A stretch of 64,000 nucleotides of DNA, taken from contig CAJTZC010000004.1 of assembly GCA_910583745.1 (NCBI GenBank), forward strand, positions 21,548 through 85,547, read 5' to 3'. Origin of the DNA: an uncultured Bacilli bacterium. Lineage in GTDB: Bacteria; Bacillota_I; Bacilli_A; RF39; UBA660. The position numbers were made by a program, and so were the translations under genes. Each line of letters starts with the position of its first letter. The stretch's first letter is position 1. This document shows, piece after piece, positions 11,323-51,040 of the stretch. The notes beneath the pieces were generated by a model. The model worked only from the letters and a program-made list of their open reading frames with translations, did no database searches and was not told the DNA's origin.

Positions 11323-11346
11323 CATTCTGGTGGAGGATGTGGGATT
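11323..11346. repeat. attL core copy (displaced 3' fragment of tRNA-Ala)
   Basis: Identical to 51017-51040. Confidence 0.8.
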
Positions 11347-11447
11347 ATATTTTTTAAATCTTTGTAATCTTATATAACTTAATATGTCCCTATTTAAAAG
11401 AAATTTTATACTAAAATTCACGTTGTTATAATATAATATTTATTTTT

Positions 11448-11469
11448 TGTTACGTAAAATGTTACGTAA
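11448..11469 (+). promoter_or_regulatory. Tandem TGTTACGTAA x2 (11448-11457 and 11460-11469); candidate integrase arm-type or regulatory sites
   Basis: The same 10-mer tandem pair recurs at 50951-50971 near the other prophage end. Confidence 0.45.
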
Positions 11470-11481
11470 ATCATGTAACAT

Positions 11482-11967
11482 ATGAAATGCAAAAACTTAA
11501 AAATTGAATCAAAAAAAGGCACTAAAAAAGGATACTGTAAACTGCATGATAAAGAGGTATCTTTATTCTGCAATGAATGCCCTTTTGAAGTTAAATATGA
11601 TATAGAAAAAATAAAAAGAAAGACTAAACAATATAAACCTATCAAAAAACGGTCTAACAAGCTCGCCAAAGCTGAAAAAGAACGTTTTAGTATAATCTAT
11701 CAAGATTTAACTAAATGTTGCGTAGAGAACTGTTTAACACCGTATTTTGGGGTACAAAAAAACGAAGTCTTTGAAGGTTCTTATAGACAAGCTTCGATTG
11801 AGTATGGTTTAGTATGCCCATTTTGCGTTAATTGTCACAAGAGATTCCACAAAGACCGAGAATTTGCTCTATATTATAAGAGACTATTTCAGGATAGATT
11901 CATAGAGTTATATTCTAGAGATTTATTTATGAGCATATTTAAAATGGATTATCATTATCGAAATTAA
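11482..11967 (+). CDS. Cys-rich putative zinc-binding protein (161 aa), function unknown
   Basis: Multiple CxxC-like pairs (CNEC, CPFC..C..H). First gene inside attL and the only plus-strand gene at this end. Confidence 0.5.
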   Translation: MKCKNLKIESKKGTKKGYCKLHDKEVSLFCNECPFEVKYDIEKIKRKTKQYKPIKKRSNKLAKAEKERFSIIYQDLTKCCVENCLTPYFGVQKNEVFEGSYRQASIEYGLVCPFCVNCHKRFHKDREFALYYKRLFQDRFIELYSRDLFMSIFKMDYHYRN

Positions 11968-11976
11968 TCTACTGTT

Positions 11977-12015
11977 AAAAACAAAAAATTCTCACAACTG
12001 GACTATGTGTGAGAA
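11977..12015 (-). terminator. Rho-independent terminator for the 12051-13146 module
   Basis: On the minus strand, the hairpin TTCTCACA-N10-TGTGAGAA is followed by TTTTTTGTTTTT. Confidence 0.5.
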
Positions 12016-12050
12016 CTGAATACAATTTGTCATATGAACTAAATTTCCAA

Positions 12051-12602
12051 TTAAATGCTTTTTAAGTTGTTCAAATTCCAACTATTATTTTTTTCTTTTT
12101 CGTAGATTATTTCTTTTTTCATTCTTATAATTTTTCCATCGATATTTAAGTCAGCCACAATTCCTAAATGAAAAAAGTCTATTAAAATAATTTTTAGTTT
12201 ACTGTTATTATTATAAATATAAAATTGGAATCTTTTTTTATCCCTGTGTTTTACTTTAAAAATATTTTGTAAATCCTTTTTTGTATATTTATGACGATAG
12301 CCTATATTAATAATATCCAATAACCTTTTAGCGGCAGGTTCTGTATAAGTGATTTCGTCCATAGGCTCAAAGTCGTCATCAAAAAAATCATAATTATCAG
12401 CGCTTGCATCTTTGACATATTCTTCTAATTTTTTATATAATTCGTTTTCACTAGTTTTAACAAAGTTCGTAAAAAATAGATTAGGGTCATTAAATGAGTT
12501 CAAAGAATTGCCGAAATCAAAACTATCATATTCTTCTTTTGAAAATTTTGTTTTATTAGAATTAAATCTATTTTGGCGACGACTTTTACGAATTTTTGGC
12601 AT
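12051..12602 (-). CDS. Unknown 183-aa protein translationally coupled to the Panacea-domain gene; candidate toxin/effector
   Basis: Overlaps the upstream gene by 17 nt. Basic N-terminus, acidic middle, no recognisable family. Confidence 0.5.
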   Translation of the reverse strand: MPKIRKSRRQNRFNSNKTKFSKEEYDSFDFGNSLNSFNDPNLFFTNFVKTSENELYKKLEEYVKDASADNYDFFDDDFEPMDEITYTEPAAKRLLDIINIGYRHKYTKKDLQNIFKVKHRDKKRFQFYIYNNNSKLKIILIDFFHLGIVADLNIDGKIIRMKKEIIYEKEKNNSWNLNNLKSI

Positions 12603-13146
12603 ATTCTCTTATTATTTCTTCTTTTGGAATTTCTGCATTATGAAAAATATTATTTTTGTTAAAATGTTTTTTCCAACATTTATCCTCATGAGAAATCTCT
12701 ACAAGTTTAAAATCATTTACAGGCAAAACATCATCTAAAATTCCGTTAATAAATTCCTGAACATAATCCATTCCATTAAAGAGATTACTATTTTTATAAT
12801 TTGATAATTCTTTTGCTTTATCAACGTTATATACATCTGGTATAACGGGGCCATATACCCATGCTTCAATAGTATTATCAAAAAGATATTCACTATAATT
12901 TAAATCTATTTCTTTTTTTGAATGCCCTTTTGATTTCCTGATAAAGCCGCCCCAATAACCAAAACAAAAATACAAAGCTTTTTGCAATTTTAACGGAGAT
13001 ATGGGTTTATTAAATTTTTCTTCATAATATTCAGAAATATATACCCCTAATTCTTTCGCATCTACTAAGCCTTTCATACCATTACTCCCTCCACCAGTTA
13101 TAGAATACCATAAATTTTTAAGATTTTCCATAAATTTTTGTGTCAA
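12586..13146 (-). CDS. Panacea-domain (DUF4065, PanA/SocA-like) protein; putative antitoxin
   Basis: Motifs LKLQKALYFCFGYW and AWVYGPVIPDVY match the Panacea domain consensus. TTG start with RBS AAGGGAG. Confidence 0.6.
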   Translation of the reverse strand: MTQKFMENLKNLWYSITGGGSNGMKGLVDAKELGVYISEYYEEKFNKPISPLKLQKALYFCFGYWGGFIRKSKGHSKKEIDLNYSEYLFDNTIEAWVYGPVIPDVYNVDKAKELSNYKNSNLFNGMDYVQEFINGILDDVLPVNDFKLVEISHEDKCWKKHFNKNNIFHNAEIPKEEIIREYAKNS

Positions 13147-13175
13147 GTGACAACACTCCCTTTTCGTTTTATTTT

Positions 13176-13266: not shown

Positions 13267-14022
13267 TTATTGGTTTGAATATAGTTTGATGTTATCAGTA
13301 TTCATCGCAGCCCAAACTTGACCACGAGCACTAAGAACTGCACGATTATCGACAAGTTCAGTAATCGTGTAATACTCATCATATTGAATTAACTTTGTTC
13401 CATAAAAATCAACTTTTTTTATCGCGACCACTTTATCGCCTACTCTAAAAGTCGTTTTTTGAGGTTCTACGGGCTCTTTTGCATCTTCACTAGTATTTAC
13501 ACTATAATCATATTTTGGACGCCCATAGCCCACGATAGACGTTGAATTCAATGCATATTTTTTCTCTTTGACGCCGTTCACGGGGCTTCCTGTATTACCT
13601 TCAACAACATAGACATAGTTAGGATCTACTCTTACGATCAACCCTGTATGTGCGTATTTAGAAAAAAATACTTGGTCTCCAGGTTGAGGATTCGCAGTAT
13701 AGAACTGACCTTTCTGTTTATAGTATTGAGCCGAATATCCTACGCCTGCGCCACATGATTTAAGAGGTTGGCATAATAGTTCTAACGCTCTTGCGACGCC
13801 AAATGCTTGCACAAAGCACCAATCTACAAAAATGTCACACCACGAGTAACCGTTTTTCTTTCCATTGTAAAACCCCGAAATTTTATCGAGGTCTCTTGCA
13901 TACTTAGAATAATTACCGTTACCAGCGTTTGCGTTTTTGTCGTCTAGCTGGCTATTAGATTTTTTTTCGAGATAGCCGACTTCTTTTTTAGCTATTTCTA
14001 TTACTCTTTCGATTTCATTCAT
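13267..14022 (-). CDS. Endolysin with a CHAP peptidase domain and a C-terminal SH3-like cell-wall-binding region
   Basis: The Cys (SWCDIF) and His (YAHTGLIV..VVEGN) catalytic pair matches a CHAP domain. Last gene of the lysis cassette; its start overlaps the holin stop. Confidence 0.7.
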   Translation of the reverse strand: MNEIERVIEIAKKEVGYLEKKSNSQLDDKNANAGNGNYSKYARDLDKISGFYNGKKNGYSWCDIFVDWCFVQAFGVARALELLCQPLKSCGAGVGYSAQYYKQKGQFYTANPQPGDQVFFSKYAHTGLIVRVDPNYVYVVEGNTGSPVNGVKEKKYALNSTSIVGYGRPKYDYSVNTSEDAKEPVEPQKTTFRVGDKVVAIKKVDFYGTKLIQYDEYYTITELVDNRAVLSARGQVWAAMNTDNIKLYSNQ

Positions 14023-14207
14023 TATTCTTCACTCTCCTTATTTTTATCTTTTTTGTTAAAAAAGTATGTCATAACTGCTCCGTACGATGTACTAAATAAC
14101 ATTAAAACCTCTTTATTGATGTCGTATGGTATGAACAGTAATGCGACCATGGCAATAGTCATTATTACTGTTACGAATGATTTTAAATCATTCCACGCTT
14201 TTATCAT
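14022..14207 (-). CDS. Holin (61 aa, two TM segments)
   Basis: Two hydrophobic helices and a charged C-terminus, immediately upstream of the endolysin with an ATGA overlap. Confidence 0.6.
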   Translation of the reverse strand: MIKAWNDLKSFVTVIMTIAMVALLFIPYDINKEVLMLFSTSYGAVMTYFFNKKDKNKESEE

Positions 14208-14222
14208 ATTATTACCTTCTTT

Positions 14223-14519
14223 CTATTTTAAACCTAATTTTAACAGGACATATCCTATTAAACCGCCAATCAAAGCAGATAGAATATAACCTATAATTTG
14301 GTCCATTCTTTTAGATGGCTTATCTTTTATTTCTTTCATATCGTTTTTAATCTCTTTAACATCGTTATCAATATTGTCAACTTTATCATTAACTTTAGTT
14401 AAAGCAATATAGACATCAGATAATTCTTCGAGTTTTTTATCATGTTCGTCCAATCTATGAGTATTAGATTTACTACGACTTTCGACTTCTTTTAAAAGTT
14501 CTATATCTTTTCTATCCAT
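14223..14519 (-). CDS. XhlA-like membrane protein of the lysis cassette
   Basis: N-terminal coiled-coil plus one C-terminal TM, about 98 aa, and position upstream of the holin. This resembles the haemolysin XhlA family. Confidence 0.5.
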   Translation of the reverse strand: MDRKDIELLKEVESRSKSNTHRLDEHDKKLEELSDVYIALTKVNDKVDNIDNDVKEIKNDMKEIKDKPSKRMDQIIGYILSALIGGLIGYVLLKLGLK

Positions 14520-14534: not shown

Positions 14535-16496
14535 CTAATTTATAACCTTTACATATAAACTGCATGCAGGTCTAGTAGTTGTTCCATACAACATCAAAGG
14601 ACCATCAACCCCTTGAAGTGCACCAAGTGAGATTTTATCGCCCTTTTCTACGCTTAACGGAAAAGAGCCTATGCTAAATGTTTGTGTAGCGTTACCACTC
14701 GCTCTATTAACATAACTGCTTATCCCTGCTTCTATGCTATTTTTTAGAACATGTATTTCTACCGCTTTTCCGGCAGGCCCATCTTCATACCACAATGTAA
14801 ACTCTGCACTAACTTCGACTGCGTGTACTTCGTCACTTGTAATCTCTATATATTCATTTGTTTTCTTCAAATAAGTTAAACCATTATCATAAAAAACAGC
14901 GTTTAGTGGTACGTTTTGAAGCTGCCAAGGCGTCATTGTTATAGATGTCGAATCGTTCAAATAAAGACTCATTCCTGCCGTGTATTTCTTTAAAGTATTC
15001 GCTATGATTGTATTTATATCTACACCGTCAATTTCAAGACCGTTCATACAATTGATAGTTAGCTCGCTATCGATGTATTTTTCGTTAGAACTACGATTAC
15101 TTATAGTTCCAAATGCCATCGAATGACCTGAAGCATTAAAGTTTATAAGCTTAAAGTCTGCGCCGAGTTCGCGGTCGATATAGACTTCGTTAAAGGCGTC
15201 GGTTACTCGGAATCGTATATCATAAACATAGTTTGCATTTAAAGTTGCACCCGTTAAGACGCCTGAAGCATTTAACTCATAAGATGATGTCGATATTGAC
15301 TTATATGTATAAGTTGAACTTCCTGTCGTCTTATAACCTATTTCGTACTTCTTTGTATTTTTATCGTTTAAAGATGTGATAGAGGCTTGAAAGACATATT
15401 TGAGATACGTTCCACTTTCAGATTCGCTTCCAGAGCTTGTGCTTCGAACTGCTGAAACGGAAGTGATTTTTGGCGACTCGTAAGCTAATGCGCTAGATGT
15501 TGCCACTTTTTCAATAGTAGCTGCATGTCTTTTGTCGTATACGGTTGCAATAACTGTGAATTGACCTGAAATACTAATTGTATCTGTTGTTATTTCGACA
15601 TCAGTGGCATTTCCTTCTACCTCTTGAACTTTGTTCCACACTGTTTTTCCTGTACTATCTTTTAATAAAATATACACACTATGCAAAGGGCTGTTTTGAC
15701 ATTTGACGATGTTGTTAAATGAAATCTTTATTTTGGATTGATTCTGTACATAAGCACCAATTCCTAAGCTCGAAACTATATTATTAGCTTCAGCTATGCT
15801 TAAGTCAAAATTTGGCGCATCGACGTTGGGTCTAAGATTCAACGAAAATGAAGCATATGATGTTCCGACATAGTTAGAACTATCTTCAAGACCATTATAT
15901 GTATCGCATCTTATAGTGAATGTTCCACTTGGAGAGTCCGTAAAATACTGCAACAAATTTTGCGGCAAAGTCCAATCGTAAAAATCGCTTATATTTTTAG
16001 CTAGAAAATAGTACGTGTCACTGTTTGGCGGTTTATAAGAAAGCGAACCAGTAAATACATCCGCACTCTTATTCAAAGTAATTCGCAATGTATCCCCGAC
16101 AATCGGATTCGCATTACTTAAAGTAAGTGAAATGGCACGTGGTATTTTTGTCAGCCATTTATTTCCGCTTGCACGAATCGTACCTGCTGAGGTTCCTGTT
16201 ACGATGCTAGCACTATATTCTAAATATTTAGAGCCGTCTGCTTCATGTGGCACAGTGACATCGACATAACAAGATGAACTTGACTGAGAGCCTTTTAAAG
16301 CCAAACTAGAAGTATATGTTTGACCGTTTACTATAAAAGTAACTGTTTTTAGGTCGCTCCAAAAGGTCGTACCACTCGTTCTTTTAACTGTAAATGTAAT
16401 ACGCTCTACTGTCGTGTTGTTAGCTATATCATAATCGCCGATTTGTGCACATGAAATGGAACCAGATGCGGCAAATAGTTGAATATTTAATTTCAT
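14535..16496 (-). CDS. Tail fiber / receptor-binding protein (653 aa)
   Basis: Last large tail gene before the lysis cassette. Ser/Thr-rich and beta-rich composition. Confidence 0.5.
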   Translation of the reverse strand: MKLNIQLFAASGSISCAQIGDYDIANNTTVERITFTVKRTSGTTFWSDLKTVTFIVNGQTYTSSLALKGSQSSSSCYVDVTVPHEADGSKYLEYSASIVTGTSAGTIRASGNKWLTKIPRAISLTLSNANPIVGDTLRITLNKSADVFTGSLSYKPPNSDTYYFLAKNISDFYDWTLPQNLLQYFTDSPSGTFTIRCDTYNGLEDSSNYVGTSYASFSLNLRPNVDAPNFDLSIAEANNIVSSLGIGAYVQNQSKIKISFNNIVKCQNSPLHSVYILLKDSTGKTVWNKVQEVEGNATDVEITTDTISISGQFTVIATVYDKRHAATIEKVATSSALAYESPKITSVSAVRSTSSGSESESGTYLKYVFQASITSLNDKNTKKYEIGYKTTGSSTYTYKSISTSSYELNASGVLTGATLNANYVYDIRFRVTDAFNEVYIDRELGADFKLINFNASGHSMAFGTISNRSSNEKYIDSELTINCMNGLEIDGVDINTIIANTLKKYTAGMSLYLNDSTSITMTPWQLQNVPLNAVFYDNGLTYLKKTNEYIEITSDEVHAVEVSAEFTLWYEDGPAGKAVEIHVLKNSIEAGISSYVNRASGNATQTFSIGSFPLSVEKGDKISLGALQGVDGPLMLYGTTTRPACSLYVKVIN

Positions 16497-18563
16497 CTAG
16501 TTCACTACCTTTCCAAAATCGAGAGAGCCGTTGTCTCGAGGCGTAAAAGCGAAGTTACCTAACATAAGACGTGTAACCTTGAATGTGTCTCCGTTCCAAA
16601 AAGAAATCGGTACATTGTTGTACCGAATTTCGATTCCGTCGTCTTTTGAAACTAAAGTATAAGGGCTAGTGCTTTTTCCGATGACAAGTCCAACTCCCGC
16701 TTCAAATTTCATATACTCTGATTGTTCAATAACTTTCTCTTCTAATTCTCCAGTTTTATCCTTAATAGTTTTGAGTGTTTCGTTTATTTCCCAAGCGAAA
16801 GAATTGTTGTTTTGAGTGTATTTAGTCTCAAACTCTGTAATAACTCTGTTTACTTCATTTTCGAGATTGTGAAGTTTATCTTGTATCGAAGCGTCTAAAT
16901 CATTTATAGATGAGTTTATACTATCTATTTCATGACTAAAATCATTCACTACTTCCCATGTTTCGCCGTTATAGCGTTTTAACTGATTCATGGTTGTATC
17001 TAACCACATAAGAGTTTTATCTTCTGATTCAACATCACTTTGAATTGCACTGTCTTTACCGTCTTGTCCTTGTAAAACAAGAGATAACATTATAGTTTTA
17101 TACAATTCATAAGTGTTATTATTTGAATCAGTGTAACTGAATTTGAACGTATATTTGTTATCGAGAGCAAAAATAGAGATATCTTTGTCAACTGCGAAAC
17201 GAACGTAATTTTCATCTATCGTTAAAACGATTCCTGTCTTTTCATCTTCAGTTATAGGTTTGCAGTCTATCTTTTTACCCATAAAAAATACATCATAGTT
17301 GATGTCATAATTTGTGGTCTCATGAGGTTTGTTAGAATTATCAACCGAAACGACTATATTGTTTGACTCTAGATTTACTCGGAATTTTTCGACAGTAGAA
17401 TTTACTATTTCTTCGGTCTTGCTTACAGAAGCCGAAATATTATCAAGGTCTAACTCAATCGTAGACAAACGACCATCTAAGTTATCTTGCTCTTGTGAAA
17501 TAACTTTAAATTTTCCTTCGTGTTCGTCTAAAGTACTTTGAAGCTTTTTAATTTTTGTTTTTGTGGATATTTTTTGCGTACTATCTTTTGAAGATATACC
17601 AGATAAATCTGAAAGATAGCTTCCATAAAAACCATTACCAAATCTCCATTTTTTTTGCGCAAAAGTTTGCATGTTTCCAATCTTAATTAAATCTCCTGTA
17701 TCAATTGAAGGGTCTCCCCACATTTGAAGATTCGAAGATTGAAATTGCAAACCATTTAAAGCGTTGAATATCGCATCTATCTCTTCTTGTGTACACGTAA
17801 AAATGCTATTGGAATCCAGATAAACTATATATCCATTTTCATTACCAGCTTCAAAAAGTTGCGAACCATTTGCATAGACAACTTTAGTTACGATTTTGAC
17901 TTCATCTTGGGTATATTCGCTAACGGTGGTTTGTGGAATTTCGATAGGAGTTAAGTCTTCAAAAGAAACAATTTTAAGCTTATCTCTTATTAATTTTGCG
18001 TACCCACAAGCGCGTTCACTGATATAGCTTAGATAATTCCTAGCAGTAAGATTACTATCATAAACTTCTACATTTTTACTTCCGTTTATTATATATGAAT
18101 TTTCTAGCGGGACTCCTATATCTTCGCAAATATGTTTTAAAAGTTGATACCGTGTACAAGGTATATATTGACTCGCGTCATATGGGACATCAAATAAGAA
18201 CATTTTATCATTTAATATATACTCTGTCTCAAAATCATTTTTATTTTCAACTTTTGTCACGATGAAGGTGCCCAAAGGGATTTTTTCAGTAGTTTCATCA
18301 TCAAACAGTAATTTGTAAGTTATATTCAATCTTGAAGACATTTTAAGAGGCAAATCTATATCATTATCTAAAGTCAATTTAATCTTACATATTGTCGCAC
18401 TTCCTAGTGAAAAACACTTATTAACAAATACATCATCATCGAGAGAAAAGTCTCTAATAAAATCATTATCAATAATAATGTCTCCGAATTTTATTTCTAA
18501 GGAATGTTCTGCATTTTCACTATAAATATTATCTTTATATCTTTGAGTTGTATAATAAGCCAT
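16497..18563 (-). CDS. Tail-tip/baseplate structural protein (688 aa) with coiled-coil segments
   Basis: Position between the tape measure and the fiber gene. Confidence 0.5.
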   Translation of the reverse strand: MAYYTTQRYKDNIYSENAEHSLEIKFGDIIIDNDFIRDFSLDDDVFVNKCFSLGSATICKIKLTLDNDIDLPLKMSSRLNITYKLLFDDETTEKIPLGTFIVTKVENKNDFETEYILNDKMFLFDVPYDASQYIPCTRYQLLKHICEDIGVPLENSYIINGSKNVEVYDSNLTARNYLSYISERACGYAKLIRDKLKIVSFEDLTPIEIPQTTVSEYTQDEVKIVTKVVYANGSQLFEAGNENGYIVYLDSNSIFTCTQEEIDAIFNALNGLQFQSSNLQMWGDPSIDTGDLIKIGNMQTFAQKKWRFGNGFYGSYLSDLSGISSKDSTQKISTKTKIKKLQSTLDEHEGKFKVISQEQDNLDGRLSTIELDLDNISASVSKTEEIVNSTVEKFRVNLESNNIVVSVDNSNKPHETTNYDINYDVFFMGKKIDCKPITEDEKTGIVLTIDENYVRFAVDKDISIFALDNKYTFKFSYTDSNNNTYELYKTIMLSLVLQGQDGKDSAIQSDVESEDKTLMWLDTTMNQLKRYNGETWEVVNDFSHEIDSINSSINDLDASIQDKLHNLENEVNRVITEFETKYTQNNNSFAWEINETLKTIKDKTGELEEKVIEQSEYMKFEAGVGLVIGKSTSPYTLVSKDDGIEIRYNNVPISFWNGDTFKVTRLMLGNFAFTPRDNGSLDFGKVVN

Positions 18564-18566
18564 ATT

Positions 18567-18953
18567 TTATTGTCCTCTCACTTTTTTCTTTTGAGAGCAG
18601 CTAAAAGATACTTTCCATTTTGTCTTATCACTGTTTTCATCTTCTGTGGTCGAAATCAGTGATATAGACCTTTTTGCGCATCTAAAATCTGCAGTTAAAA
18701 TTTTTCCGCCTAAAATAGGACATTTAATCTCTAAAGGCATAGGATTTTGCCAAGTTAAAGCCATTAATTTTTCAGCTTCCTCTTCGCTTACATAATCAAA
18801 AGAAAAAGAGCATTTTACCATACCCTTTGCTAAAGTTTTATCAATTAAACTAGCGCTAACTGGTGACCTTTTTGAATCTAAATCTATGTCATCTACATTT
18901 AGCGAAAAAGAAGAGGGAGATTTTTGAGTCTCCCCATTACATTTCCAAACCAT
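18567..18953 (-). CDS. Small tail structural protein (128 aa; possible distal tail protein)
   Basis: Immediately downstream of the tape measure gene. Confidence 0.4.
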   Translation of the reverse strand: MVWKCNGETQKSPSSFSLNVDDIDLDSKRSPVSASLIDKTLAKGMVKCSFSFDYVSEEEAEKLMALTWQNPMPLEIKCPILGGKILTADFRCAKRSISLISTTEDENSDKTKWKVSFSCSQKKKVRGQ

Positions 18954-18955
18954 AT

Positions 18956-21544: not shown

Positions 21545-21580
21545 AATTTTTGCCTCCTCTCTTTGGTAATAAACAGAAGA

Positions 21581-21853: not shown

Positions 21854-21915
21854 TCCATATCTGTAACAATGTGGTTCAATTTCATAGATTAAGTCTTTAA
21901 AATCTTTTTTATTTT

Positions 21916-40876: not shown

Positions 40877-40879
40877 CTC

Positions 40880-41335: not shown

Positions 41336-41406
41336 ACTTTTTCTCCTCTCAAATAATTTAGTTAGAAAGACGAAGAGTCGTCTTTCTGTTCACTTTATTT
41401 TATTGT

Positions 41407-42027: not shown

Positions 42028-42028
42028 A

Positions 42029-43384: not shown

Positions 43385-43701
43385 TAATCCAAAATTTTAA
43401 CCGTTACCGAACTTGCTACTGGACTAGTTTTTGAATATTCCTCGTAAATGTCAGGACATTCTTCTTTAAGACGTTTAGTGTCTACTGAAGTTCGTGATGT
43501 TCCTTTCTTGTAAGTAAATACGATTCCATGGGATTCGAGATTGGTTTTGCCTAGCTCTTCCATTAAATCTTTAACTCTTTGATTTACTTCTTTAGTACCT
43601 AACTCGAGTTTTTTTTGAAGACGTAGTAACTCTTTGTAGTCTTCTGCGTATTGTTCATCAAGTACTAAGCTTCCGTTTTCAACTTTTACTAACTCATTCA
43701 T
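43384..43701 (-). CDS. Hypothetical protein (105 aa)
   Basis: ORF. Confidence 0.4.
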   Translation of the reverse strand: MNELVKVENGSLVLDEQYAEDYKELLRLQKKLELGTKEVNQRVKDLMEELGKTNLESHGIVFTYKKGTSRTSVDTKRLKEECPDIYEEYSKTSPVASSVTVKILD

Positions 43702-44321
43702 TATGCTACTGTCTCTACTTTCTTTTTCTTTGAAATTAGACTACTTGCTTCCTGAACTGTTAAGTCCTCAATTTTTTCTTTTTTAACTAATTCTAACGCT
43801 TTAGTAATTTCTTCTGAAGTAAATATACTCTTTATCACTTCTATTTGTTTGTCAGTTGCTTTGACTATTTTTTGCTGAACGGTTTTCTGTTGAACTGGCT
43901 TTTGCGTTGGTTGCAGAGCTTTAGATTTATCTCCGGTAGTTGGGTCAAACATATCATTTTCTGTAATATCGAATGCTGACATATACAAGTATCTTCTTGA
44001 GTATGTTTCTACACCACCTAGAGCTTGTATTTGATTGCAGCCTTTTAATTCTAAGTCTCTCATAGGACTTGTATATTCTTCAAATTGTTCTTGTTTGTCA
44101 CTATTTACGATTCTTAGAGTTGCCACTTCGTTTGTAAAAGTTACTTTAGTAAACAGCCCTACCTCATTGCAAAGCCTTATAACTGTAGGAATAAAATCTC
44201 CTAATTCGTAATATTTAAATCCTGCGAATTTATTTTCTCCGGTTTGAGTTAAATTGCTCTCTAATAATTTTTGTTTAACTAGTTGAATCTTTTTCCAAAG
44301 ACTCATATTTGCGTAATCCAT
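43701..44321 (-). CDS. Possible single-strand annealing / recombination protein (206 aa)
   Basis: Context only: it sits between the DnaB-like helicase and the PD-(D/E)XK nuclease. No family motif recognised. Confidence 0.25.
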   Translation of the reverse strand: MDYANMSLWKKIQLVKQKLLESNLTQTGENKFAGFKYYELGDFIPTVIRLCNEVGLFTKVTFTNEVATLRIVNSDKQEQFEEYTSPMRDLELKGCNQIQALGGVETYSRRYLYMSAFDITENDMFDPTTGDKSKALQPTQKPVQQKTVQQKIVKATDKQIEVIKSIFTSEEITKALELVKKEKIEDLTVQEASSLISKKKKVETVA

Positions 44322-44330
44322 ATTTTTCTC

Positions 44331-44603
44331 CTATTCTACGAAAGTACACATTCTAGATGATAACTGCCATTTAGCACCTTTATCATCAGTAATTAAGTAC
44401 TCTTCGTCTTCTATTTTTTTAATTTCGTTTATTTTTATTTCTAGCGATTCGCCATTCATTGAGCAAATTGCCTTTGTGTATTTTGGTGTATTTATGTAAT
44501 CGTAAAAGTGCTTTGTTCCTAGAATTAAACCTAAGAATCCAGCTAGCGCTAACACACATATTGTGATTCGCATTATTGAATCTTTTATATCTTCGTATGT
44601 CAT
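44331..44603 (-). CDS. Small membrane protein (90 aa)
   Basis: One TM helix. Confidence 0.4.
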   Translation of the reverse strand: MTYEDIKDSIMRITICVLALAGFLGLILGTKHFYDYINTPKYTKAICSMNGESLEIKINEIKKIEDEEYLITDDKGAKWQLSSRMCTFVE

Positions 44604-44763
44604 TTTAAAATCCTTTCAATGACTCTTATACTCTCTTTAACTTGTTGTTTTTCTAATTCGTATTCAATTTTATTTGTTTCGTCCTTTGCATCTAATGCTT
44701 TAGTTTTTAAATAAATAAAGTATCCAAACAATTGATTTCGAATAGTCTTTAACTCTGTTCTTG

Positions 44764-45972
44764 TCAATTTAAATCCTCCATTCTTTGACTTTTTTTAAAA
44801 TAATCTGCTCTAATAAATATGTTTCTTTTTGACCCTCGACATTTTGGTATTAATAGTTGGATTTCTTTTGTATCGCTATTGTCATCTTTGTGTGGGTCGT
44901 GTATCAATATGATTGTGTCAGCGCTCTGTTCTAGTTCTCCGGAATCTTTTAAGTCTTCCATAGTCGGCGTATCTGCACCGTTTCGATTTATTTGAGCTAT
45001 TATGAAGACAGTACAGTTATAGTCTTTTGTAAGGTTATTAAGCTCTCGAGTAATCTCTCCTATTCTATCTCTGTCGTTCATTCCATAGCGTGAAGTCACA
45101 TAGCCGATATAATCAACAAAGACTATAAGATGCGAATCTCTTTGTTCTCTAATGATTTTGCTTTTAATCGAACGTACACTTTTGCTCCCGTTCACAACTT
45201 CATAATTGTAGTTGTATATCTTATCTGTCATGTTATTTATTAATTCATTTTGATAAGGACTAATTGGAACCTTAACCTCTTCCGTAGGTATTCCTGTTTC
45301 GATTCCGAGCATTCTTTCATATACCTCTGCCTCGGTCATCTCCATGTTGAAATATAAGCATTTATAGGTCTTACTTAAGTCACACATAAGATTTAATGCG
45401 AGCGCTGACTTTCCTTCGCTTGGTCGAGCTGCAATGATATTTACAGTGTTTTGTTTTATCATAATTTTTGTGTTGAAACTTTTAAATCTATTGAATTGAA
45501 TTTTTCTTTCTTCGCTTCGAATGATTTTTAACATTTCTTCTGGTGTTTTTTTGTTTGAATGTTTAAGATATAAGTTTTCTGAATTAATATTCTGAATTTT
45601 TTCGACTAAATCTTCCCGATTCAACTTGTGTTGTTCGTATTCTTTAATCGCTGTATCTAATTGATAATCTCTGTATGCTTCTTGTAAAGTATTTTGATAT
45701 TCATAGAATTGTGATATTAAGTAATCACCAGTAAGTGCATTTGTAATATAGTCTATGAACTTGTTTTGCTGTTCTTCTGTCGGAAACTTCATCGAAAATT
45801 GAGTAATATCAAATTCCTTCGTTTCTTGTGACATTTTTTTAAAAAAGTTTATCATCTTTCGGTTTTGAGCATTTAAGAAACATTTTTCATCAACATACAA
45901 TTCTTTTATTAATTCGAATCTATCAATTATACAGCCGATTATTTTTGTTTCTAAAATATCATACTGCTTCAT
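44764..45972 (-). CDS. DnaB-like replicative helicase
   Basis: Walker A (ARPSEGKSALALNL), and the IIAQINRNG motif resembles the DnaB SQLNR box. Confidence 0.7.
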   Translation of the reverse strand: MKQYDILETKIIGCIIDRFELIKELYVDEKCFLNAQNRKMINFFKKMSQETKEFDITQFSMKFPTEEQQNKFIDYITNALTGDYLISQFYEYQNTLQEAYRDYQLDTAIKEYEQHKLNREDLVEKIQNINSENLYLKHSNKKTPEEMLKIIRSEERKIQFNRFKSFNTKIMIKQNTVNIIAARPSEGKSALALNLMCDLSKTYKCLYFNMEMTEAEVYERMLGIETGIPTEEVKVPISPYQNELINNMTDKIYNYNYEVVNGSKSVRSIKSKIIREQRDSHLIVFVDYIGYVTSRYGMNDRDRIGEITRELNNLTKDYNCTVFIIAQINRNGADTPTMEDLKDSGELEQSADTIILIHDPHKDDNSDTKEIQLLIPKCRGSKRNIFIRADYFKKSQRMEDLN

Positions 45973-46726
45973 AACGAACCTCAGTTTTGGTATTGCCTAC
46001 TTTTCGTTCTTGAAACATTTTATCGAACTCTTCAGCTTCGGACGTGCTTCTAATGCCGTTTCGTTCGTAATTACGTAGTATGGTAACTATGTAACTTATT
46101 TTTGTAGCTCTATTTAACTCTGCTATGCGTATCGCATGTCTAGTTAAATCGTTGTCTGTCCAACTGTTTATCTCTTCGAACTCGACAGGCGATAACGGTC
46201 TACCAAAGGCCTGTTCTACTAGTTCAAAGATATTTTTTTCATCATCATTCATTTTTGGCGTGGTAGCCTCAGACATGGTAGTCTCTACTATAGGTTCTAT
46301 AGTATTTGTAGATGATGATGTATTATTCTCTTCTATACTAATCTCTTCTAATCTATTCTTATCTATACTATGTACACAACTTGTATACAAACTGTATACA
46401 CCGTTTTTATCAAGCGATAATTGCTTCCTTTCTTCCTGATAAATAGTAGGTTTAGTTCTATCATTTTGAAGATAATTATTAAGTCTCCAGTGTCGTATTA
46501 CTATGACACCTTTTTCAAATGGTATTATGAATTTTTTAGATATTAGAACTTTGATGTCGTCTTCTTTCCCTCCGACGGTACGAAGTATACTTTTCCAGTT
46601 ATCGACGAATCCATCATCGTCCGCTCGCATATTTAAGTGAAAATATACGGCTTGTGTCGTGAGAGGCATTTCCAAAAAGGAGTCGTTGTCTATCACACGC
46701 TTATCAAACATTCTTTTGTTTGCCAT
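45959..46726 (-). CDS. Replication initiation/membrane-attachment protein (phage replisome organiser N-terminal domain plus DnaD-like C-terminal domain)
   Basis: C-terminal RHAIRIAELNRATKISYIVTILRNYERNGI is DnaD-domain-like. It overlaps the helicase start. Confidence 0.55.
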   Translation of the reverse strand: MANKRMFDKRVIDNDSFLEMPLTTQAVYFHLNMRADDDGFVDNWKSILRTVGGKEDDIKVLISKKFIIPFEKGVIVIRHWRLNNYLQNDRTKPTIYQEERKQLSLDKNGVYSLYTSCVHSIDKNRLEEISIEENNTSSSTNTIEPIVETTMSEATTPKMNDDEKNIFELVEQAFGRPLSPVEFEEINSWTDNDLTRHAIRIAELNRATKISYIVTILRNYERNGIRSTSEAEEFDKMFQERKVGNTKTEVRYEAV

Positions 46727-46761
46727 ATTGTTTCCCTTTCTGTATTTTTAACCCCCAGGTT

Positions 46762-46995
46762 TTATACAAGTCCCTTCTTTTTTAATTCTTCATAGTCTTT
46801 TTCGGGCTCAGCATCCTTCAAACACTCTAATGCCTCTTTTTTTGAATTTACAAACCAAATAGGATATTCTCCCTCGTATGCATAGCCATCTGCAAAATAT
46901 AATACATACTTGCAGTCTTCATACGTTCCATCGTTTACCTCTAAACTACCAAAAAATTTTTGATATTTATTTGGCACTTTTAACTTTGTTTTCAC
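46762..46995 (-). CDS. Hypothetical protein (77 aa)
   Basis: ORF. Confidence 0.4.
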   Translation of the reverse strand: MKTKLKVPNKYQKFFGSLEVNDGTYEDCKYVLYFADGYAYEGEYPIWFVNSKKEALECLKDAEPEKDYEELKKKGLV

Positions 46996-47090
46996 AATAA
47001 TATTTCTCCTTTTTTGACATTTACGATTAAAAGTGTTATACTCTAATCGTAAATTTTATTTTTTAATTTACTGACTTACATTCCTCAAGA

Positions 47091-47300
47091 TTAAAGATGT
47101 AAGTCTTTTTTTATGTCTAAAATATAACAAGCAAGTATATAACTAACAGTACATATTCCTAAGGTTAATAAACCTTGAAATAAAGTTGCTTTATATGCAA
47201 GCCCATCAACGATAAATTTTATAAGCATTATGTATGATGTTAAAGCAAGTGACGATAACATTGAATAAATACTTATTTTCTCAAATATGTTTTTCTTCAT
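47091..47300 (-). CDS. Small membrane protein (69 aa, 2 TM)
   Basis: Hydrophobic. Confidence 0.35.
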   Translation of the reverse strand: MKKNIFEKISIYSMLSSLALTSYIMLIKFIVDGLAYKATLFQGLLTLGICTVSYILACYILDIKKDLHL

Positions 47301-47643
47301 AAGTTTCCCTTTCTATTCTCATAGCCTTTCGCATTTTATTTGCCTCACGCCTGACAAAATCTAAATCGACATGGGCTTCTTCAAGAACTCTTTTTATTGG
47401 TAATTTGTGAGGTCTTGTATCATCGTAAAAGAAACATTTAGCTAATAGCTTGTTTCTGATGTCAGCATTTTGTTCTTGCAAAGCCTCTAATTTTTCTTGC
47501 TTAAGTTTTTCTTCTAACCTCAACCTAAAATTGTCGGCTTTGCTTTTCGAACACTTTCCTAAAATTACTTGTATTTCATTTGTAGTTACCCATAAAATGT
47601 TACAAGCCTCTTCTATTTCGATATAATTACTGTTTTTTCTCAA
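47281..47643 (-). CDS. Hypothetical early protein (120 aa)
   Basis: ORF. Confidence 0.4.
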   Translation of the reverse strand: MRKNSNYIEIEEACNILWVTTNEIQVILGKCSKSKADNFRLRLEEKLKQEKLEALQEQNADIRNKLLAKCFFYDDTRPHKLPIKRVLEEAHVDLDFVRREANKMRKAMRIERETYEEKHI

Positions 47644-48212: not shown

Positions 48213-48437
48213 CTATTTTTGTACAAAAAAGCAATCAACAGTACAACCAAACATTTTAGCAAGTTTAATTAATGTACCAACTTTTATTTTTTCCGCATCT
48301 TTTTCATAATCTACGTATGTTGGTCGAGTTATCCGTAGTTCTGCTTCGACTGCTTCCATTGTTACATTCGCTCTATTTCTTTCTGCTCGAATATTATCTG
48401 CAATTTTTTTGCCGTCGATTTCGTTTTTCACTATCAT
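48213..48437 (-). CDS. Cro-like HTH (XRE family) regulator
   Basis: 74-aa HTH protein transcribed divergently from the repressor. Confidence 0.65.
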   Translation of the reverse strand: MIVKNEIDGKKIADNIRAERNRANVTMEAVEAELRITRPTYVDYEKDAEKIKVGTLIKLAKMFGCTVDCFFVQK

Positions 48438-48463
48438 CCCTCCTAACTGTATTCATTGTATCA

Positions 48464-48505
48464 TTAACAAAATGTTAAGTCAAGCGTGATTTAACAAATT
48501 GTTAA
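48464..48505. promoter_or_regulatory. Two operator palindromes, TTAACAAAATGTTAA (48464-48478) and TTAACAAATTGTTAA (48491-48505), in the cI/cro divergent region
   Basis: Perfect 6-bp half-sites with a 3-bp spacer, repeated. Confidence 0.55.
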
Positions 48506-48512
48506 AAAAATA

Positions 48513-48540
48513 TTGAATTTGTCGCTGAACCGTGTTAATA
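48513..48540 (+). promoter_or_regulatory. Candidate repressor promoter TTGAAT-16-TAATAT
   Basis: -35 at 48513-48518 and -10 at 48535-48540, followed by RBS AAAGGGG and the ATG at 48564. Confidence 0.4.
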
Positions 48541-48563
48541 TAGTTATAGAAAGGGGAAAATTT

Positions 48564-49238
48564 ATGGAAAATGAAAAAGAAAAAACTCACATAGCAACTA
48601 ATTTAAAATATTTACGTGCTATAAATGGCAAGTCTTTAAACGATGTTGCTAATATTTGTGGTAAATCCGATGTCGCTGTTCATTATTGGGAAAATGGAAC
48701 TAGAGAGCCTAATGCAGTAGATATAGCAAAATTATCAAATTACTTCGATATTACTGTTGATGACTTATTGATAAAAGATTTACGTTTTGATAACGCTGAA
48801 TTTGTAGATATAAATACCGACACAGTGTCTATACCAGTGCTTGGTATCATTCGAGCCGGTATGCCTATTGAGGCACAAGAAAATATAATCGACTATGTCG
48901 ATATACCACGTGAATGGACGAAGGGCGGAAAACAGTTTTTTGGTTTAAAGATTAAAGGTAACAGCATGTCGCCAAAATACGCTTCAGGAGACACAGTAGT
49001 CTTTGAAAGTACTGAAGATTTTGAATATGCGAATAATAAAGATTCGTGCATTATGGTAAATGGCTTTGATGCTACTTTTAAGAAATTTAATATAAATCAA
49101 AGTGGTGTTACATTGACACCCTTGAATTTAGAAAATGAAGACGGGTACACTACTACATTTTATGATGTAGAACAAGTTAAAGAACTACCCGTTAAAGTAA
49201 TTGGAATCGCTAGAAGAAAGATTTCTGATATTGAATGA
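48564..49238 (+). CDS. CI-like repressor (XRE HTH plus S24 LexA-like peptidase domain)
   Basis: N-terminal HTH; C-terminal GNSMSP ... K is an S24 Ser/Lys autocleavage module. The start was chosen at the internal ATG with an RBS; the track ORF starts at 48513. Confidence 0.75.
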   Translation: MENEKEKTHIATNLKYLRAINGKSLNDVANICGKSDVAVHYWENGTREPNAVDIAKLSNYFDITVDDLLIKDLRFDNAEFVDINTDTVSIPVLGIIRAGMPIEAQENIIDYVDIPREWTKGGKQFFGLKIKGNSMSPKYASGDTVVFESTEDFEYANNKDSCIMVNGFDATFKKFNINQSGVTLTPLNLENEDGYTTTFYDVEQVKELPVKVIGIARRKISDIE

Positions 49239-49289
49239 GATTAAATCACAGGAATGTGTTTTAATAAATATTGAGAAAGGAAGTAAAAT

Positions 49290-49535
49290 ATGATTTGTCC
49301 AAAATGTAAGAATGAAAATGTAACTATACAGGCGGTAAATGAGCAAAAATTAGTTACTAAGCATCATGGTATTTTTTGGTGGATATGTATAGGCTGGTGG
49401 TGGGTATTTGTAAAATGGATTATTTTATTTATACCTGCGATATTTTCTGCAATTTTTATAGGTAAAAGGAAGAAAATTAAAAATATAACAAAAAAGAAAC
49501 ATGTATGTCAAAACTGTGGTTATATTTGGGAATAA
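49290..49535 (+). CDS. Small membrane protein with a split zinc ribbon (81 aa)
   Basis: CPKC ... two Trp-rich TM helices ... CQNC. Co-oriented with cI and int. Confidence 0.45.
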   Translation: MICPKCKNENVTIQAVNEQKLVTKHHGIFWWICIGWWWVFVKWIILFIPAIFSAIFIGKRKKIKNITKKKHVCQNCGYIWE

Positions 49536-49654
49536 AAAAATCCCCTACTGCTGTAACAGTAGAGGTAAAGTACACAAATTAAAAAATCTCGGTCAAAAGA
49601 TAATTTCTTTTTGTGTACTCTAATTCTATCAAAAATAGATAAAAAAGTAAAGAA

Positions 49655-50941
49655 TTGGAGGTAAAAATTATGGCGGTTTTTCCAGTGAAAAAATATAAAA
49701 CTGTAAAAGATGAAAACAGCAATAAAATACAAGTTCAAAAAACTAAAGAAGAATGGAATAAAGAGACTAAAAATGGAACGGCAACGTGGTATTTTGTTAA
49801 TAGGTACAAAGTTCATGATAAAGTAAAACAATATAAATCTGCTCTGTTTTCCCTCAAACGCGATGCAGAGACTGATGATGCACTTTTTAGATTAGACCCT
49901 ATAAAATACATAAGTGAACATAGCAAGCGAGCTAAAGTTGATGTTTGTAAAATCAATAACTATTCTAGTAAAAATTTAAATGACTATTTTGAGGATTTCT
50001 TTAGTTACAAGTTGAACTTCAATAGAGAAAGTACTGCTTACGACTATAAGAAATCATGGGACAATCATATATCGGATTTTTTTGTCGATAAGGAAATAAC
50101 ATTAGTAACAGTTCAAGAATGGTTTGAATATATGAACATTAAACAAAAGGTAGATGGTACATTTTATTCTACTCGAACAAAAAATAAGGTTCTTACTGCT
50201 CTAAGAGAATTTTGTGCTTATCTTGTTAAAAAAGGAAGGCTGGAAATGAACTTTGCTGAAGTAGTTGGAAATTTTGAAAATCCGAATGAAAACAAAAATG
50301 AAGAAAAAGAGATTAAATTTCAAACTGAAGAACAGTTTAATGAATTTATGGAAGTTGTTGATGACGAATTTTGGTATTCACTATTTAACTTTGCTTTTTG
50401 GCATGGTCCACGAATTGGAGAACAAAGAGCTCTTAAAATTAAAAATATTAATTTAGATAAAGATATTATAAAGTTTAGTCAAACGTTTTCTAAAAGCAAA
50501 AGTGGCGGTGAAAAGATTGGACCAATAAAAAATGGTTTAGTTCGTGAAATCGCTTTAGCACCACAGAGTAAACCTTATATTGAAAAATTAATTGCTATAT
50601 ATAAAAGAATGGATGGTTATTCCGACGAATGGTTTTTGTTTGGTGGACCGATTAATACAAATAAGAATAGGATAGAAAGAAAGTTGAATGTATACTACTC
50701 TAAACTTAAAACGATTCATTCAGATAAGAATATTAATCAGCTATCGCATCATGAATTTGGGCGGCATTCACATGCATCACATCTTCTTAATAAGGGTATA
50801 GAAAATGGTATGTATCTAGAGGAAGTTTTGTCTATGATTGCTACACGTCTTGGTGATACAATAGAAGTAATTAGAAGGACCTATGCACACCAATATGAAC
50901 ACAAAAACAACGATAAAATAAAAGACTTATTAAAATTATAG
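49655..50941 (+). CDS. int: Tyrosine integrase
   Basis: The C-terminal catalytic region (HEFGRHSHASHLL ... RRTYAH) fits the R..H..R..Y signature. Adjacent to attR and the tRNA. Confidence 0.85.
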   Translation: MEVKIMAVFPVKKYKTVKDENSNKIQVQKTKEEWNKETKNGTATWYFVNRYKVHDKVKQYKSALFSLKRDAETDDALFRLDPIKYISEHSKRAKVDVCKINNYSSKNLNDYFEDFFSYKLNFNRESTAYDYKKSWDNHISDFFVDKEITLVTVQEWFEYMNIKQKVDGTFYSTRTKNKVLTALREFCAYLVKKGRLEMNFAEVVGNFENPNENKNEEKEIKFQTEEQFNEFMEVVDDEFWYSLFNFAFWHGPRIGEQRALKIKNINLDKDIIKFSQTFSKSKSGGEKIGPIKNGLVREIALAPQSKPYIEKLIAIYKRMDGYSDEWFLFGGPINTNKNRIERKLNVYYSKLKTIHSDKNINQLSHHEFGRHSHASHLLNKGIENGMYLEEVLSMIATRLGDTIEVIRRTYAHQYEHKNNDKIKDLLKL

Positions 50942-50950
50942 AAAGGAAAA

Positions 50951-50971
50951 TGTTACGTAATTGTTACGTAA
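50951..50971 (+). promoter_or_regulatory. Tandem TGTTACGTAA x2 (50951-50960 and 50962-50971) between the int stop and the att core
   Basis: Same 10-mer pair as at 11448-11469. Confidence 0.45.
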
Positions 50972-50985
50972 ACGAAAAATAAATA

Positions 50986-51010
50986 AATTAAAAACCCGTA
51001 AATACGGGTA
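50986..51010 (-). terminator. Phage-encoded rho-independent terminator for the reconstituted tRNA-Ala
   Basis: On the minus strand, ACCCGTA-TT-TACGGGT is followed by TTTTT, just inside the att core. Confidence 0.5.
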
Positions 51011-51016
51011 AATAAC

Positions 51017-51040
51017 CATTCTGGTGGAGGATGTGGGATT
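51017..51040. repeat. attR core copy, forming the 3' end of tRNA-Ala
   Basis: Identical to 11323-11346. Confidence 0.8.

Follow-up and report, generated by a model that had tools for sequence, protein, structure and literature searches.

The ends of the element and the tRNA-Ala gene

The window, meaning the whole stretch of 64,000 nucleotides that was analysed, comes from an uncultured Bacilli bacterium. It contains two exact plus-strand copies of the 24-mer CATTCTGGTGGAGGATGTGGGATT, at 11323-11346 and 51017-51040. The interval 11323-51040 measures 39,718 bp with both copies; with a single one, the phage genome is 39,694 bp. G+C content is 30-34% within this element and 37-40% in the flanks. 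The following features lie at its two ends.

11288..11316, minus strand: original host terminator of tRNA-Ala, now apart from the tRNA (read directly; same sequence right after the tRNA in the empty site)
11323..11346, minus strand: attL core, displaced host copy of the tRNA-Ala 3′ end (exact 24-mer; joined to the tRNA in the empty site)
11448..11469, plus strand: tandem TGTTACGTAA pair of the P′ arm, candidate arm-type integrase-binding sites (exact decamer copies)
49670..50941, plus strand: tyrosine integrase (phrog_1, 1e-33; PF00589, 38.8 bits)
50951..50971, plus strand: tandem TGTTACGTAA pair of the P arm, starting 10 nt past the int stop codon
50994..51009, minus strand: phage-supplied intrinsic terminator for the regenerated tRNA-Ala (ACCCGTATTTACGGGT, then TTTTT)
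51017..51040, minus strand: attR core, 3′ end of the intact tRNA (exact 24-mer)
51022..51098, minus strand: tRNA-Ala(UGC), host integration target (ARAGORN and Rfam)
51159-51377: rpoZ, directly upstream of tRNA-Ala

Scanning the whole window with up to three mismatches allowed gave no third CATTCTGGTGGAGGATGTGGGATT site, and 100 shuffles gave none. Identity between the two copies stops at 24 nt on both sides. ARAGORN called a tRNA-Ala(tgc) on the minus strand at 51022..51098, where the Rfam tRNA model scored 59.8 bits. Read directly, its acceptor stem is GGGGGAU/AUCCUCC with a G3:U70 pair, followed by discriminator A and an encoded CCA. Of the 24 nt of the core, 19 belong to the 3′ end of the tRNA, running from the final 3 nt of the T-loop through the 3′ strands of the T-stem and the acceptor stem to ACCA, and the other 5 (GAATG) lie downstream. 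The element is thus bounded by direct repeats, the right one completing an intact tRNA at its 3′ end, as in a tRNA-integrated prophage.

One empty site was found, on a short metagenome contig of the same species (L007, 1.5 kb). This contig carries rpoZ, tRNA-Ala, a single 24-mer, the terminator and the left flank, and is free of the prophage. Its bases 1-1369 correspond to window positions 52385..51017 and its bases 1346-1510 to 11346..11181, so that these matches have exactly the 24-nt core in common. L007 is an unoccupied attB and confirms the boundaries of the element to the base. The terminator at 11288..11316 is a CCTTA-GTT-TAAGG hairpin followed by a run of nine T; the terminator scanner made no call there, the hairpin having too few G-C pairs. 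Because this hairpin and T-run match those that follow the intact tRNA in the empty site, the left copy is a displaced host 3′ fragment that has kept the host terminator.

Other contigs complete the picture of the locus. The attL junction is present in assemblies of two sequencing runs (L136 and L137), and the attR junction in L001 (GCA_948740255.1). All five contigs carrying the left-end gene are in the integrated state. In other strains, the same tRNA holds a different recombinase-bearing element (L008, L010), and five contigs of the same species end inside the tRNA (L002, L003, L005, L006, L009). An exact 53-mer of the rpoZ-tRNA spacer had no match in the GTDB species representatives, from which the species is apparently absent. 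The nearest BipA locus (L046) shows 97% protein identity but only about 77% DNA identity, and synteny is lost before the tRNA. In JGI metagenomes the 24-mer turned up only where other organisms have their tRNA-Ala, every such locus having a terminator of its own, which is uninformative for this phage. An apparent similarity to L050 reaching the phage-side terminator was rejected, as it corresponds to that organism's own tRNA terminator.

The integrase ORF spans 49655-50941 and ends 75 nt short of the core; translation probably starts at ATG 49670, giving 423 aa. Residues R248, K287, H361, R365 and Y405 are invariant across 15 members of the integrase family. On these catalytic residues the protein was counted as a tyrosine recombinase, the second conserved His/Trp position being occupied here by Asp (LGD). 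No relative of the integrase was found in IMG/VR, and no match among PDB sequences. The decamer TGTTACGTAA has four exact copies in the window against 0.09 expected, and these lie only at the two prophage ends, one tandem pair per arm. We regard the four copies as candidate arm-type Int sites; analogous tandem decamers directly follow int in the relatives L133 and L135. Integrase relatives with 55-57% identity lie at tRNA 3′ ends: tRNA-Ala with rpoZ in L133, tRNA-Thr in L131 and tRNA-Leu in L132. In L135, int, a non-coding stretch and a Panacea gene pair are contiguous, an arrangement that is the junction to be expected of a circular attP form.

The sequence-only reading had placed the exact 24-mer at these two positions and nowhere else, assigned its right copy to the 3′ part of a minus-strand tRNA-Ala with a G3:U70 pair, and taken its left copy for a displaced tRNA fragment with a host-like terminator. 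These points were borne out by the mismatch scan and shuffles, by ARAGORN, Rfam and direct reading, and by comparison with L007, respectively. The tyrosine integrase it had set against the repeat at 49655..50941 was likewise recovered (phrog_1, PF00589), with its start corrected to probably 49670. It had also proposed looking for an unoccupied attB in a related genome, and L007, with its single core copy, is one.

Gene content of the element

Between the two cores, the following genes and modules were recognised.

11482..11967, plus strand: Cys-rich 161-aa cargo protein, phrog_7566; always adjoins attL in other assemblies
12051-12602, minus strand: 183-aa partner of the Panacea protein, overlapping its gene by 17 nt
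12586-13146, minus strand: SocA/Panacea-domain protein (Pfam PF13274, 33 bits against a cut-off of 25.7)
13267-14022, minus strand: CHAP endolysin of the lysis cassette 13267..14519 (PF05257, endolysin PHROGs)
14022-14207, minus strand: putative holin of the lysis cassette, from size, transmembrane character and position only
14223-14519, minus strand: XhlA-like protein of the lysis cassette (phrog_937/1193)
14535..22958, minus strand: tail module (PHROGs 158, 183, 1535, 6616, 372; PF05895)
18956-21544, minus strand: tape measure
21581-21853, minus strand: T chaperone
21916-22395, minus strand: G chaperone
22443-22958, minus strand: major tail protein
22939..33212, minus strand: packaging and head module (PHROGs 51, 2, 64, 172, 247, 1161, 5, 78)
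28110-29567, minus strand: MuF-like minor head protein, 485 aa, directly after the portal gene
33660..34715, minus strand: collagen-repeat protein (PF01391; tail-fiber PHROGs match via GXY repeats only)
34881-34956, minus strand: tRNA-like gene with a 6-nt anticodon loop, in the phage tRNA cluster
35012-35086, minus strand: tRNA-Gln(UUG), in the same phage tRNA cluster (34881..35086)
35862..47643, minus strand: early, replication and recombination region, small ORFs included
48213-48437, minus strand: Cro-like HTH protein of the lysogeny switch (PHROGs 4, 8, 3 over 48213..49238)
48513-49238, plus strand: CI-like HTH and S24 peptidase repressor of the lysogeny switch (same PHROGs)

The Cro-like and CI-like genes are divergent, and Peptidase_S24 is found on the same gene in L001. 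The early region encodes a DnaD-like loader, a DnaB-like helicase, Erf, an exonuclease, SSB and a NinB-like protein, together with an HNH endonuclease, an SPFH protein and a GIY-YIG homing endonuclease. The packaging and head module encodes terS, terL, portal, the MuF-like minor head protein, scaffold, major head, adaptor, and tail completion and terminator proteins; the collagen-like protein occupies an unusual position upstream of terS. Besides the proteins listed, the tail module holds a 128-aa protein, a 688-aa tail protein and a 653-aa DUF859 tail protein. No sheath family match was obtained among the tail-module proteins scanned. Overall, the major tail protein, G/GT chaperones, long tape measure, terminase, portal, scaffold and major head protein are those of a siphovirus-type phage. 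A structured non-coding block is a further side observation.

The modules announced by the sequence-only reading, for lysogeny, replication, packaging, head and tail formation and lysis, were recovered in canonical order through PHROG and Pfam matches. Its G/GT chaperones held up too, with a −1 frame overlap of the G/GT type: upstream of T the −1 frame is open, and A AAA AAG stands at 21969-21963. Its 'fibers' call for a minor correction, as they are tail proteins of PHROG 6616 and 372 (DUF859).

In the Panacea (PanA) pair, the PF13274 protein and an unrelated partner form a two-gene operon, and the same pair lies beside int in L135. The 183-aa partner matched nothing in Pfam, PHROG or PADLOC, and PADLOC run on ten cargo or unknown proteins, this pair included, gave nothing meaningful. 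The pair at 12051..13146 is a candidate toxin-antitoxin or defence moron.

Among the side leads, the C-terminal domain of the minor head protein ranks first. The AlphaFold model of the whole protein (pLDDT 88) matches minor capsid and head-morphogenesis proteins of BFVD, with E-values down to 2e-11; Pfam Phage_Mu_F (PF04233) gave no match to it. Homologues share the N-terminal ~320 aa and vary at their C-termini, which carry PF03496, PF15542, PF18451 or no extension, so that variable C-terminal toxin domains of the MuF polymorphic type occur among close homologues. Here, the C-terminal domain comprises 156 residues (window 28113-28580, minus strand) with invariant H-N-H-P, D, Y, H and Y. Its model is confident (pLDDT 91, pTM 0.86), and it matched no Pfam family and no PDB fold. 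At the 50% identity level, at least 375 protein clusters contain it, and its position is C-terminal in nearly all the best 150 listed. Among the nine longer members scanned that had a Pfam match, it is fused to three different kinds of head-internal carrier: MuF, minor capsid protein 2 and portal proteins. Tentatively, and at somewhat less than even odds, it may be an undescribed capsid-delivered effector domain, either a toxin or an anti-defence factor. A 90-aa ORF (27971-28243) overlapping the 3′ end of the minor head gene had no family match.

Integration and the nature of the element

We conclude, with a probability of about 0.93, that window positions 11347-51016 together with one 24-bp core are the genome of a temperate siphovirus-type phage whose own integrase inserted it into the chromosome of its host, an uncultured gut bacterium of the Bacilli, where it lies as a prophage. 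The tyrosine integrase would recombine the 24-bp attP core with an identical attB, formed by the last 19 nt of tRNA-Ala(UGC) and the 5 nt downstream. Since the phage brings its own terminator as well as a duplicate of the tRNA 3′ end, an intact, terminated tRNA-Ala would be regenerated at attR on integration, and the original 3′ fragment would stay at attL with the host terminator. Lysogeny would be held by the CI-like repressor with its S24 autoprotease domain, opposite the Cro-like gene, and induction would proceed via RecA-stimulated self-cleavage of the repressor. The strand-exchange mechanism, SOS inducibility, and a continued ability of this prophage to excise and form particles are what we infer; neither an excisionase nor an excised attP junction was found, and the five left-end-gene contigs are all integrated.

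The sequence-only reading had called the prophage in tRNA-Ala complete. On gene content, it is apparently complete; no excisionase was identified. The element might instead be a cryptic prophage, integrated as proposed and now unable to excise or make particles. Among the small ORFs scanned, no PHROG or Pfam match to an excisionase (recombination directionality factor) was obtained, a weak negative as such proteins are small and diverse and profile searches often miss them. Neither an exact 34-mer of the attP junction nor the 24-mer itself was present in IMG/VR, and no attP junction was found among the left-end-gene contigs. The abnormal 6-nt anticodon loop of one phage tRNA and the Asp at the His/Trp-II position of the integrase also point towards decay. 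However, the expected modules are all there as uninterrupted ORFs, the att cores are still identical, and presence or absence of the element is polymorphic among near-identical strains, which argues for recent mobility. A defective state is unlikely, at perhaps one chance in five.

Two further readings were rejected as highly improbable. As the source is a metagenome assembly and five contigs break inside the tRNA, a phage contig could have been misjoined to the chromosome at a shared tRNA-like sequence. Against such an artefact, both junctions were recovered in separate assemblies, the duplicated stretch has exactly the 24 bp that site-specific integration should leave, the host terminator has stayed with the displaced copy, and the empty site differs solely by absence of the element. 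A tRNA-adjacent tyrosine integrase is also found in many islands, and the different recombinase-bearing element in the same tRNA of two contigs could suggest a phage satellite or an integrative island (PICI-like or ICE) instead of a phage. This is excluded by the structural gene complement: at ~39.7 kb, the element has its own terS, terL, portal, scaffold, major head and tail proteins, tape measure and lysis cassette, and conjugation genes are absent.

The integrated temperate phage retained here gives a clean, base-precise case of a prophage targeted to a tRNA gene, in a lineage of uncultured gut Bacilli for which few phages are known. A phage lineage without a deposited relative is now linked to its host, and attB, attL, attR and candidate arm sites are defined for a poorly sampled integrase clade that switches tRNA targets. 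These data can help to annotate prophages in gut metagenomes and to assign hosts there; the understanding of integration is unchanged. The head-protein cargo domain, the Panacea gene pair, the odd tRNA and the structured non-coding block are possibly worth separate follow-up.

Comparison with known phages and systems

Temperate phages and islands such as P4 and P22 integrate into tRNA 3′ ends via a tyrosine integrase. As in these, the tRNA 3′ end is repeated in the attP core so that the gene is restored, int adjoins att, direct repeats flank the prophage and repeated motifs lie on both arms. Unlike in these, the target is tRNA-Ala(UGC) beside rpoZ in an uncultured Bacilli lineage, and Xis was not recognised.

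The minor head protein recalls the MuF polymorphic toxins of temperate Firmicutes phages (Jamet et al. 2017, PMC5576092). Like them, it is encoded directly after the portal (28110-29567), its fold matches head-morphogenesis and minor capsid proteins, and its homologues swap C-termini, including ADP-ribosyltransferase, Ntox50 and PF18451. It differs from them by the lack of a Phage_Mu_F match and by its own C-terminal domain outside Pfam families and PDB folds, and an immunity gene was not established.

Megablast of both prophage halves against deposited phages (GenBank/INPHARED) gave no match. The best TerL match there has 34% identity, and the integrase is very remote from those of deposited phages, its best match reaching 28% over 66% of its length; a generic Caudoviricetes TerL fold and a generic module order are what is shared. 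The phage is an ordinary temperate tailed phage of known kind, remote from all those deposited. Among uncultured phages, its closest relative found is IMGVR_UViG_3300006217_000303 (IMG/VR). Its early region has almost no nucleotide similarity to that of the window phage, and its tRNAs are Asp, Phe, Met and Trp. However, its TerL is 83% identical, its structural module shows 70-78% nucleotide identity, and a tRNA cluster occupies the corresponding position upstream of its packaging genes.

The tRNA-Ala target in occupied and empty form

The 64-kb window contains two exact copies of the 24-mer CATTCTGGTGGAGGATGTGGGATT, one at 11323-11346 and the other at 51017-51040. Allowing up to three mismatches revealed no further site in the window, and none was obtained in 100 shuffles. 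On both sides, the DNA flanking one copy is unrelated to that flanking the other, and the G+C content is 37-40% outside the repeats as compared to 30-34% between them. At the right copy (attR), ARAGORN located a tRNA-Ala(tgc) on the minus strand (51022-51098), which scored 59.8 bits with the Rfam tRNA model. Direct reading showed a G3:U70 pair in the acceptor stem, a discriminator A and an encoded CCA. The repeat thus corresponds to the 19 nucleotides of the tRNA 3′ end and five nucleotides (GAATG) past the encoded CCA. Both the restriction of the exact 24-mer to these two positions and the minus-strand tRNA-Ala with its G3:U70 pair had been claimed in the sequence-only reading, and both were recovered here.

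The empty site was searched for among contigs encoding an RpoZ protein identical to that of the gene beside tRNA-Ala (51159-51377). This yielded a contig of 1,510 bp from the same species (ENA ERZ13632123, hereafter L007). Its positions 1-1369 match window positions 52385..51017 at 99.6%, and its positions 1346-1510 match 11346..11181 at 98.2%. The overlap of the two matches is exactly the 24-nucleotide core. L007 carries, in order, rpoZ, tRNA-Ala, GAATG, a hairpin (CCTTA-GTT-TAAGG) with a T-run, and the left flank of the window. L007 is thus an unoccupied attB, as the search for an empty site proposed in the sequence-only reading had anticipated. Since tRNA and terminator follow each other in L007, the left copy (attL) is a host 3′ fragment that was displaced and kept the host terminator, as had also been proposed. 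The occupied form was observed elsewhere as well. The attR junction is present in GCA_948740255.1 (100% identity over 20 kb), and the attL junction in two contigs from runs ERR3199540 and ERR3199695. Overall, the insertion is a textbook case of tRNA-3′-end integration by a tyrosine integrase, and the earlier observation and its interpretation were correct apart from minor details.

Three side observations concern this tRNA. The T-stem of the host tRNA-Ala (51022-51098, minus strand) contains a C50-A64 mismatch; the empty-site contig has it too, so the mismatch is native and not a product of integration. An identical 24-mer, including GAATG past the CCA, belongs to the own tRNA-Ala of other organisms in five JGI metagenome contigs (L126-L130), which are therefore potential attB sites for the prophage integrase outside the host species. 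Finally, two ENA contigs from other strains (L008, 816-1461; L010, 784-985) are identical to the window over rpoZ-tRNA-Ala as far as the CCA. Immediately past it they have another terminator, and further on DNA similar to the host left flank and then a gene for an unrelated tyrosine recombinase. This makes the rpoZ-tRNA-Ala locus a hotspot used by at least two kinds of element.

The integrase and its putative sites

The following features belong to the integration apparatus.

49670-50941, plus strand: tyrosine integrase (phrog_1, 1e-33; PF00589)
50951-50971: tandem pair of TGTTACGTAA, at 50951 and 50962, 10 nt past the int stop
11448-11469: tandem pair of TGTTACGTAA, at 11448 and 11460, about 100 nt inside attL
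51009-50994, minus strand: phage-borne terminator, ACCCGTATTTACGGGT then a T-run, after the regenerated tRNA-Ala

In an alignment of 15 integrase family members, R248, K287, H361, R365 and Y405 are invariant; the prophage integrase has an Asp at the second His/Trp position. The decamer TGTTACGTAA has four exact copies in the window for 0.09 expected, all in one orientation, with one pair on each prophage arm. Relatives carry another decamer at the same place and with the same spacing after int, namely TGCTAGGTAA twice in L133 and TTTTACGTAAC twice in L135. Because the tandem decamers lie on both arms and have these counterparts, they are candidate arm-type Int sites.

Integrase homologues of 55-57% identity are encoded directly 3′ of tRNAs in three contigs, next to tRNA-Ala(tgc) plus rpoZ (L133), tRNA-Thr(ggt) (L131) and tRNA-Leu(gag) (L132). 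As judged from these gene orders, this integrase clade targets tRNAs and the target varies between members. L135, a 43-kb JGI contig, encodes an integrase 47% identical to that of the window. After its int gene come about 650 nt of non-coding DNA, then a toxin-like plus Panacea gene pair (L135 4425-5466). Such a junction would be expected if a phage of this kind were in its circular attP form.

No excisionase was recognised by PHROG or Pfam among the small ORFs scanned, and IMG/VR yielded no attP junction of this phage. Contigs carrying the Cys-rich left-end gene were all in the integrated state. We infer that excision and particle formation may occur, because the ORFs are intact, the cores are identical and the prophage is polymorphic in presence or absence among near-identical strains.

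Gene content of the prophage

Genes were assigned by PHROG and Pfam scans and are listed in the order of minus-strand transcription from the right end.

48513-49238, plus strand: CI-like HTH/S24-peptidase repressor, lysogeny switch
48213-48437, minus strand: Cro-like HTH protein, lysogeny switch, divergent from the repressor
Lysogeny region, with repressor and integrase: 81-aa membrane protein
Early region, replication/recombination: DnaD-like loader, DnaB-like helicase, Erf, exonuclease, SSB
Early region, replication/recombination, continued: HNH endonuclease, NinB-like protein, SPFH/Band-7 membrane protein (37898-38740, minus strand; PF01145, 116 bits), GIY-YIG homing endonuclease
Between early region and collagen-repeat gene: non-coding block of about 770 nt, two tRNA genes
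33660-34715, minus strand: collagen-repeat (GXY) protein with Cys-rich C-terminus, upstream of terS, outside the tail module
Packaging and head: terS, terL, portal
28110-29567, minus strand: 485-aa minor head protein, gene after portal
Packaging and head, continued: scaffold, major head protein, adaptor, tail-completion and tail-terminator proteins
Tail: major tail protein, G and T chaperones, 862-aa tape measure, three distal tail proteins
Lysis: XhlA-like protein, putative holin, CHAP endolysin
Left-end cargo: SocA/Panacea protein and overlapping 183-aa partner; Cys-rich 161-aa protein (11482-11967, plus strand)

The modules run from the lysogeny switch through the lysis cassette, in agreement with the complete, ordered phage genome described from the sequence. 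A siphovirus-type tail is suggested since the scanned proteins of the tail module matched no sheath family. Ahead of the T ORF, about 65 codons of the -1 frame are free of stops, and the sequence A AAA AAG is present at 21969-21963, consistent with the conserved G/GT frameshift.

The SocA/Panacea gene and that of its 183-aa partner overlap by 17 nt at the prophage end (12051-13146, minus strand). The partner matched no family and the pair gave no PADLOC match; a Panacea pair is kept next to int in L135. With PanA-type Panacea toxin-antitoxin systems (PMC8832971) as comparison, the pair is a candidate toxin-antitoxin system of this type or a defence moron.

The non-coding block (35090-35860, minus sense) has the GIY-YIG endonuclease gene on one side and the phage tRNAs on the other. 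It contains no convincing ORF, and its folding is much stronger than that of shuffles (z = -6.9 and -7.6). Within it are a promoter close to consensus, two perfect hairpins and an extended hairpin of ~160 nt abutting tRNA-Gln. No Rfam family matched it, and nucleotide conservation is absent in the IMG/VR relative IMGVR_UViG_3300006217_000303 (L011). The second phage tRNA (34881-34956, minus strand) scores 48.5 bits with Rfam. Its anticodon loop, CGAAUA, is 6 nt long, and it looks like a tRNA-Phe(GAA) minus one loop base. L011 has a normal tRNA-Phe(GAA) at the matching position of its tRNA module. The 55-nt spacer to tRNA-Gln (34957-35011, minus strand) looks like the T-arm plus acceptor fragment of another tRNA.

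Host, phage relatives and the minor head protein

The flanks encode AsnB, a 1,676-aa NPCBM/F5_F8 protein, RpoZ, a DUF6709 protein, a radical-SAM protein, BipA, CysS and a Clp ATPase. Among GTDB representatives, the best BipA loci all come from uncultured gut Bacilli MAGs variously labelled Erysipelotrichaceae, Tenericutes or Mycoplasma. Because DNA identity to the nearest of them is only about 77%, the host species is apparently absent from these representatives. Against deposited phages, megablast of the prophage gave no match, and identities were at most 34% for TerL and 28% for Int. L011 is closer, with a TerL 83% identical, a structural module at 70-78% DNA identity and a tRNA cluster of its own, in the position matching that of the prophage. 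Overall, phage and host lineages are poorly sampled; the integration mode itself is already known.

The 485-aa minor head protein had no PHROG or Pfam match. An ORF (27971-28243, minus strand) overlaps its gene. The AlphaFold model of the protein (pLDDT 88) matches BFVD minor capsid and head-morphogenesis proteins, toxin fusions included. Its C-terminal 156 aa (28113-28580, minus strand; model pLDDT 91, pTM 0.86) contain invariant H-N-H-P, D, Y, H and Y, and matched neither Pfam at E<=1 nor, by Foldseek, the PDB. This domain recurs in at least 375 protein clusters (50% identity level), and among the 150 best listed clusters it is nearly always at the C-terminal end. Pfam matched nine of the ten longer members that were scanned, and the partner was head-internal in all nine (Phage_Mu_F, Phage_min_cap2 or portal protein). 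Homologues of the 485-aa protein have the N-terminal ~320 aa in common, past which they end or bear ADP-ribosyltransferase (PF03496), Ntox50 (PF15542) or PF18451 domains. With these swapped C-termini, the family resembles the MuF polymorphic toxins (PMC5576092) in architecture.
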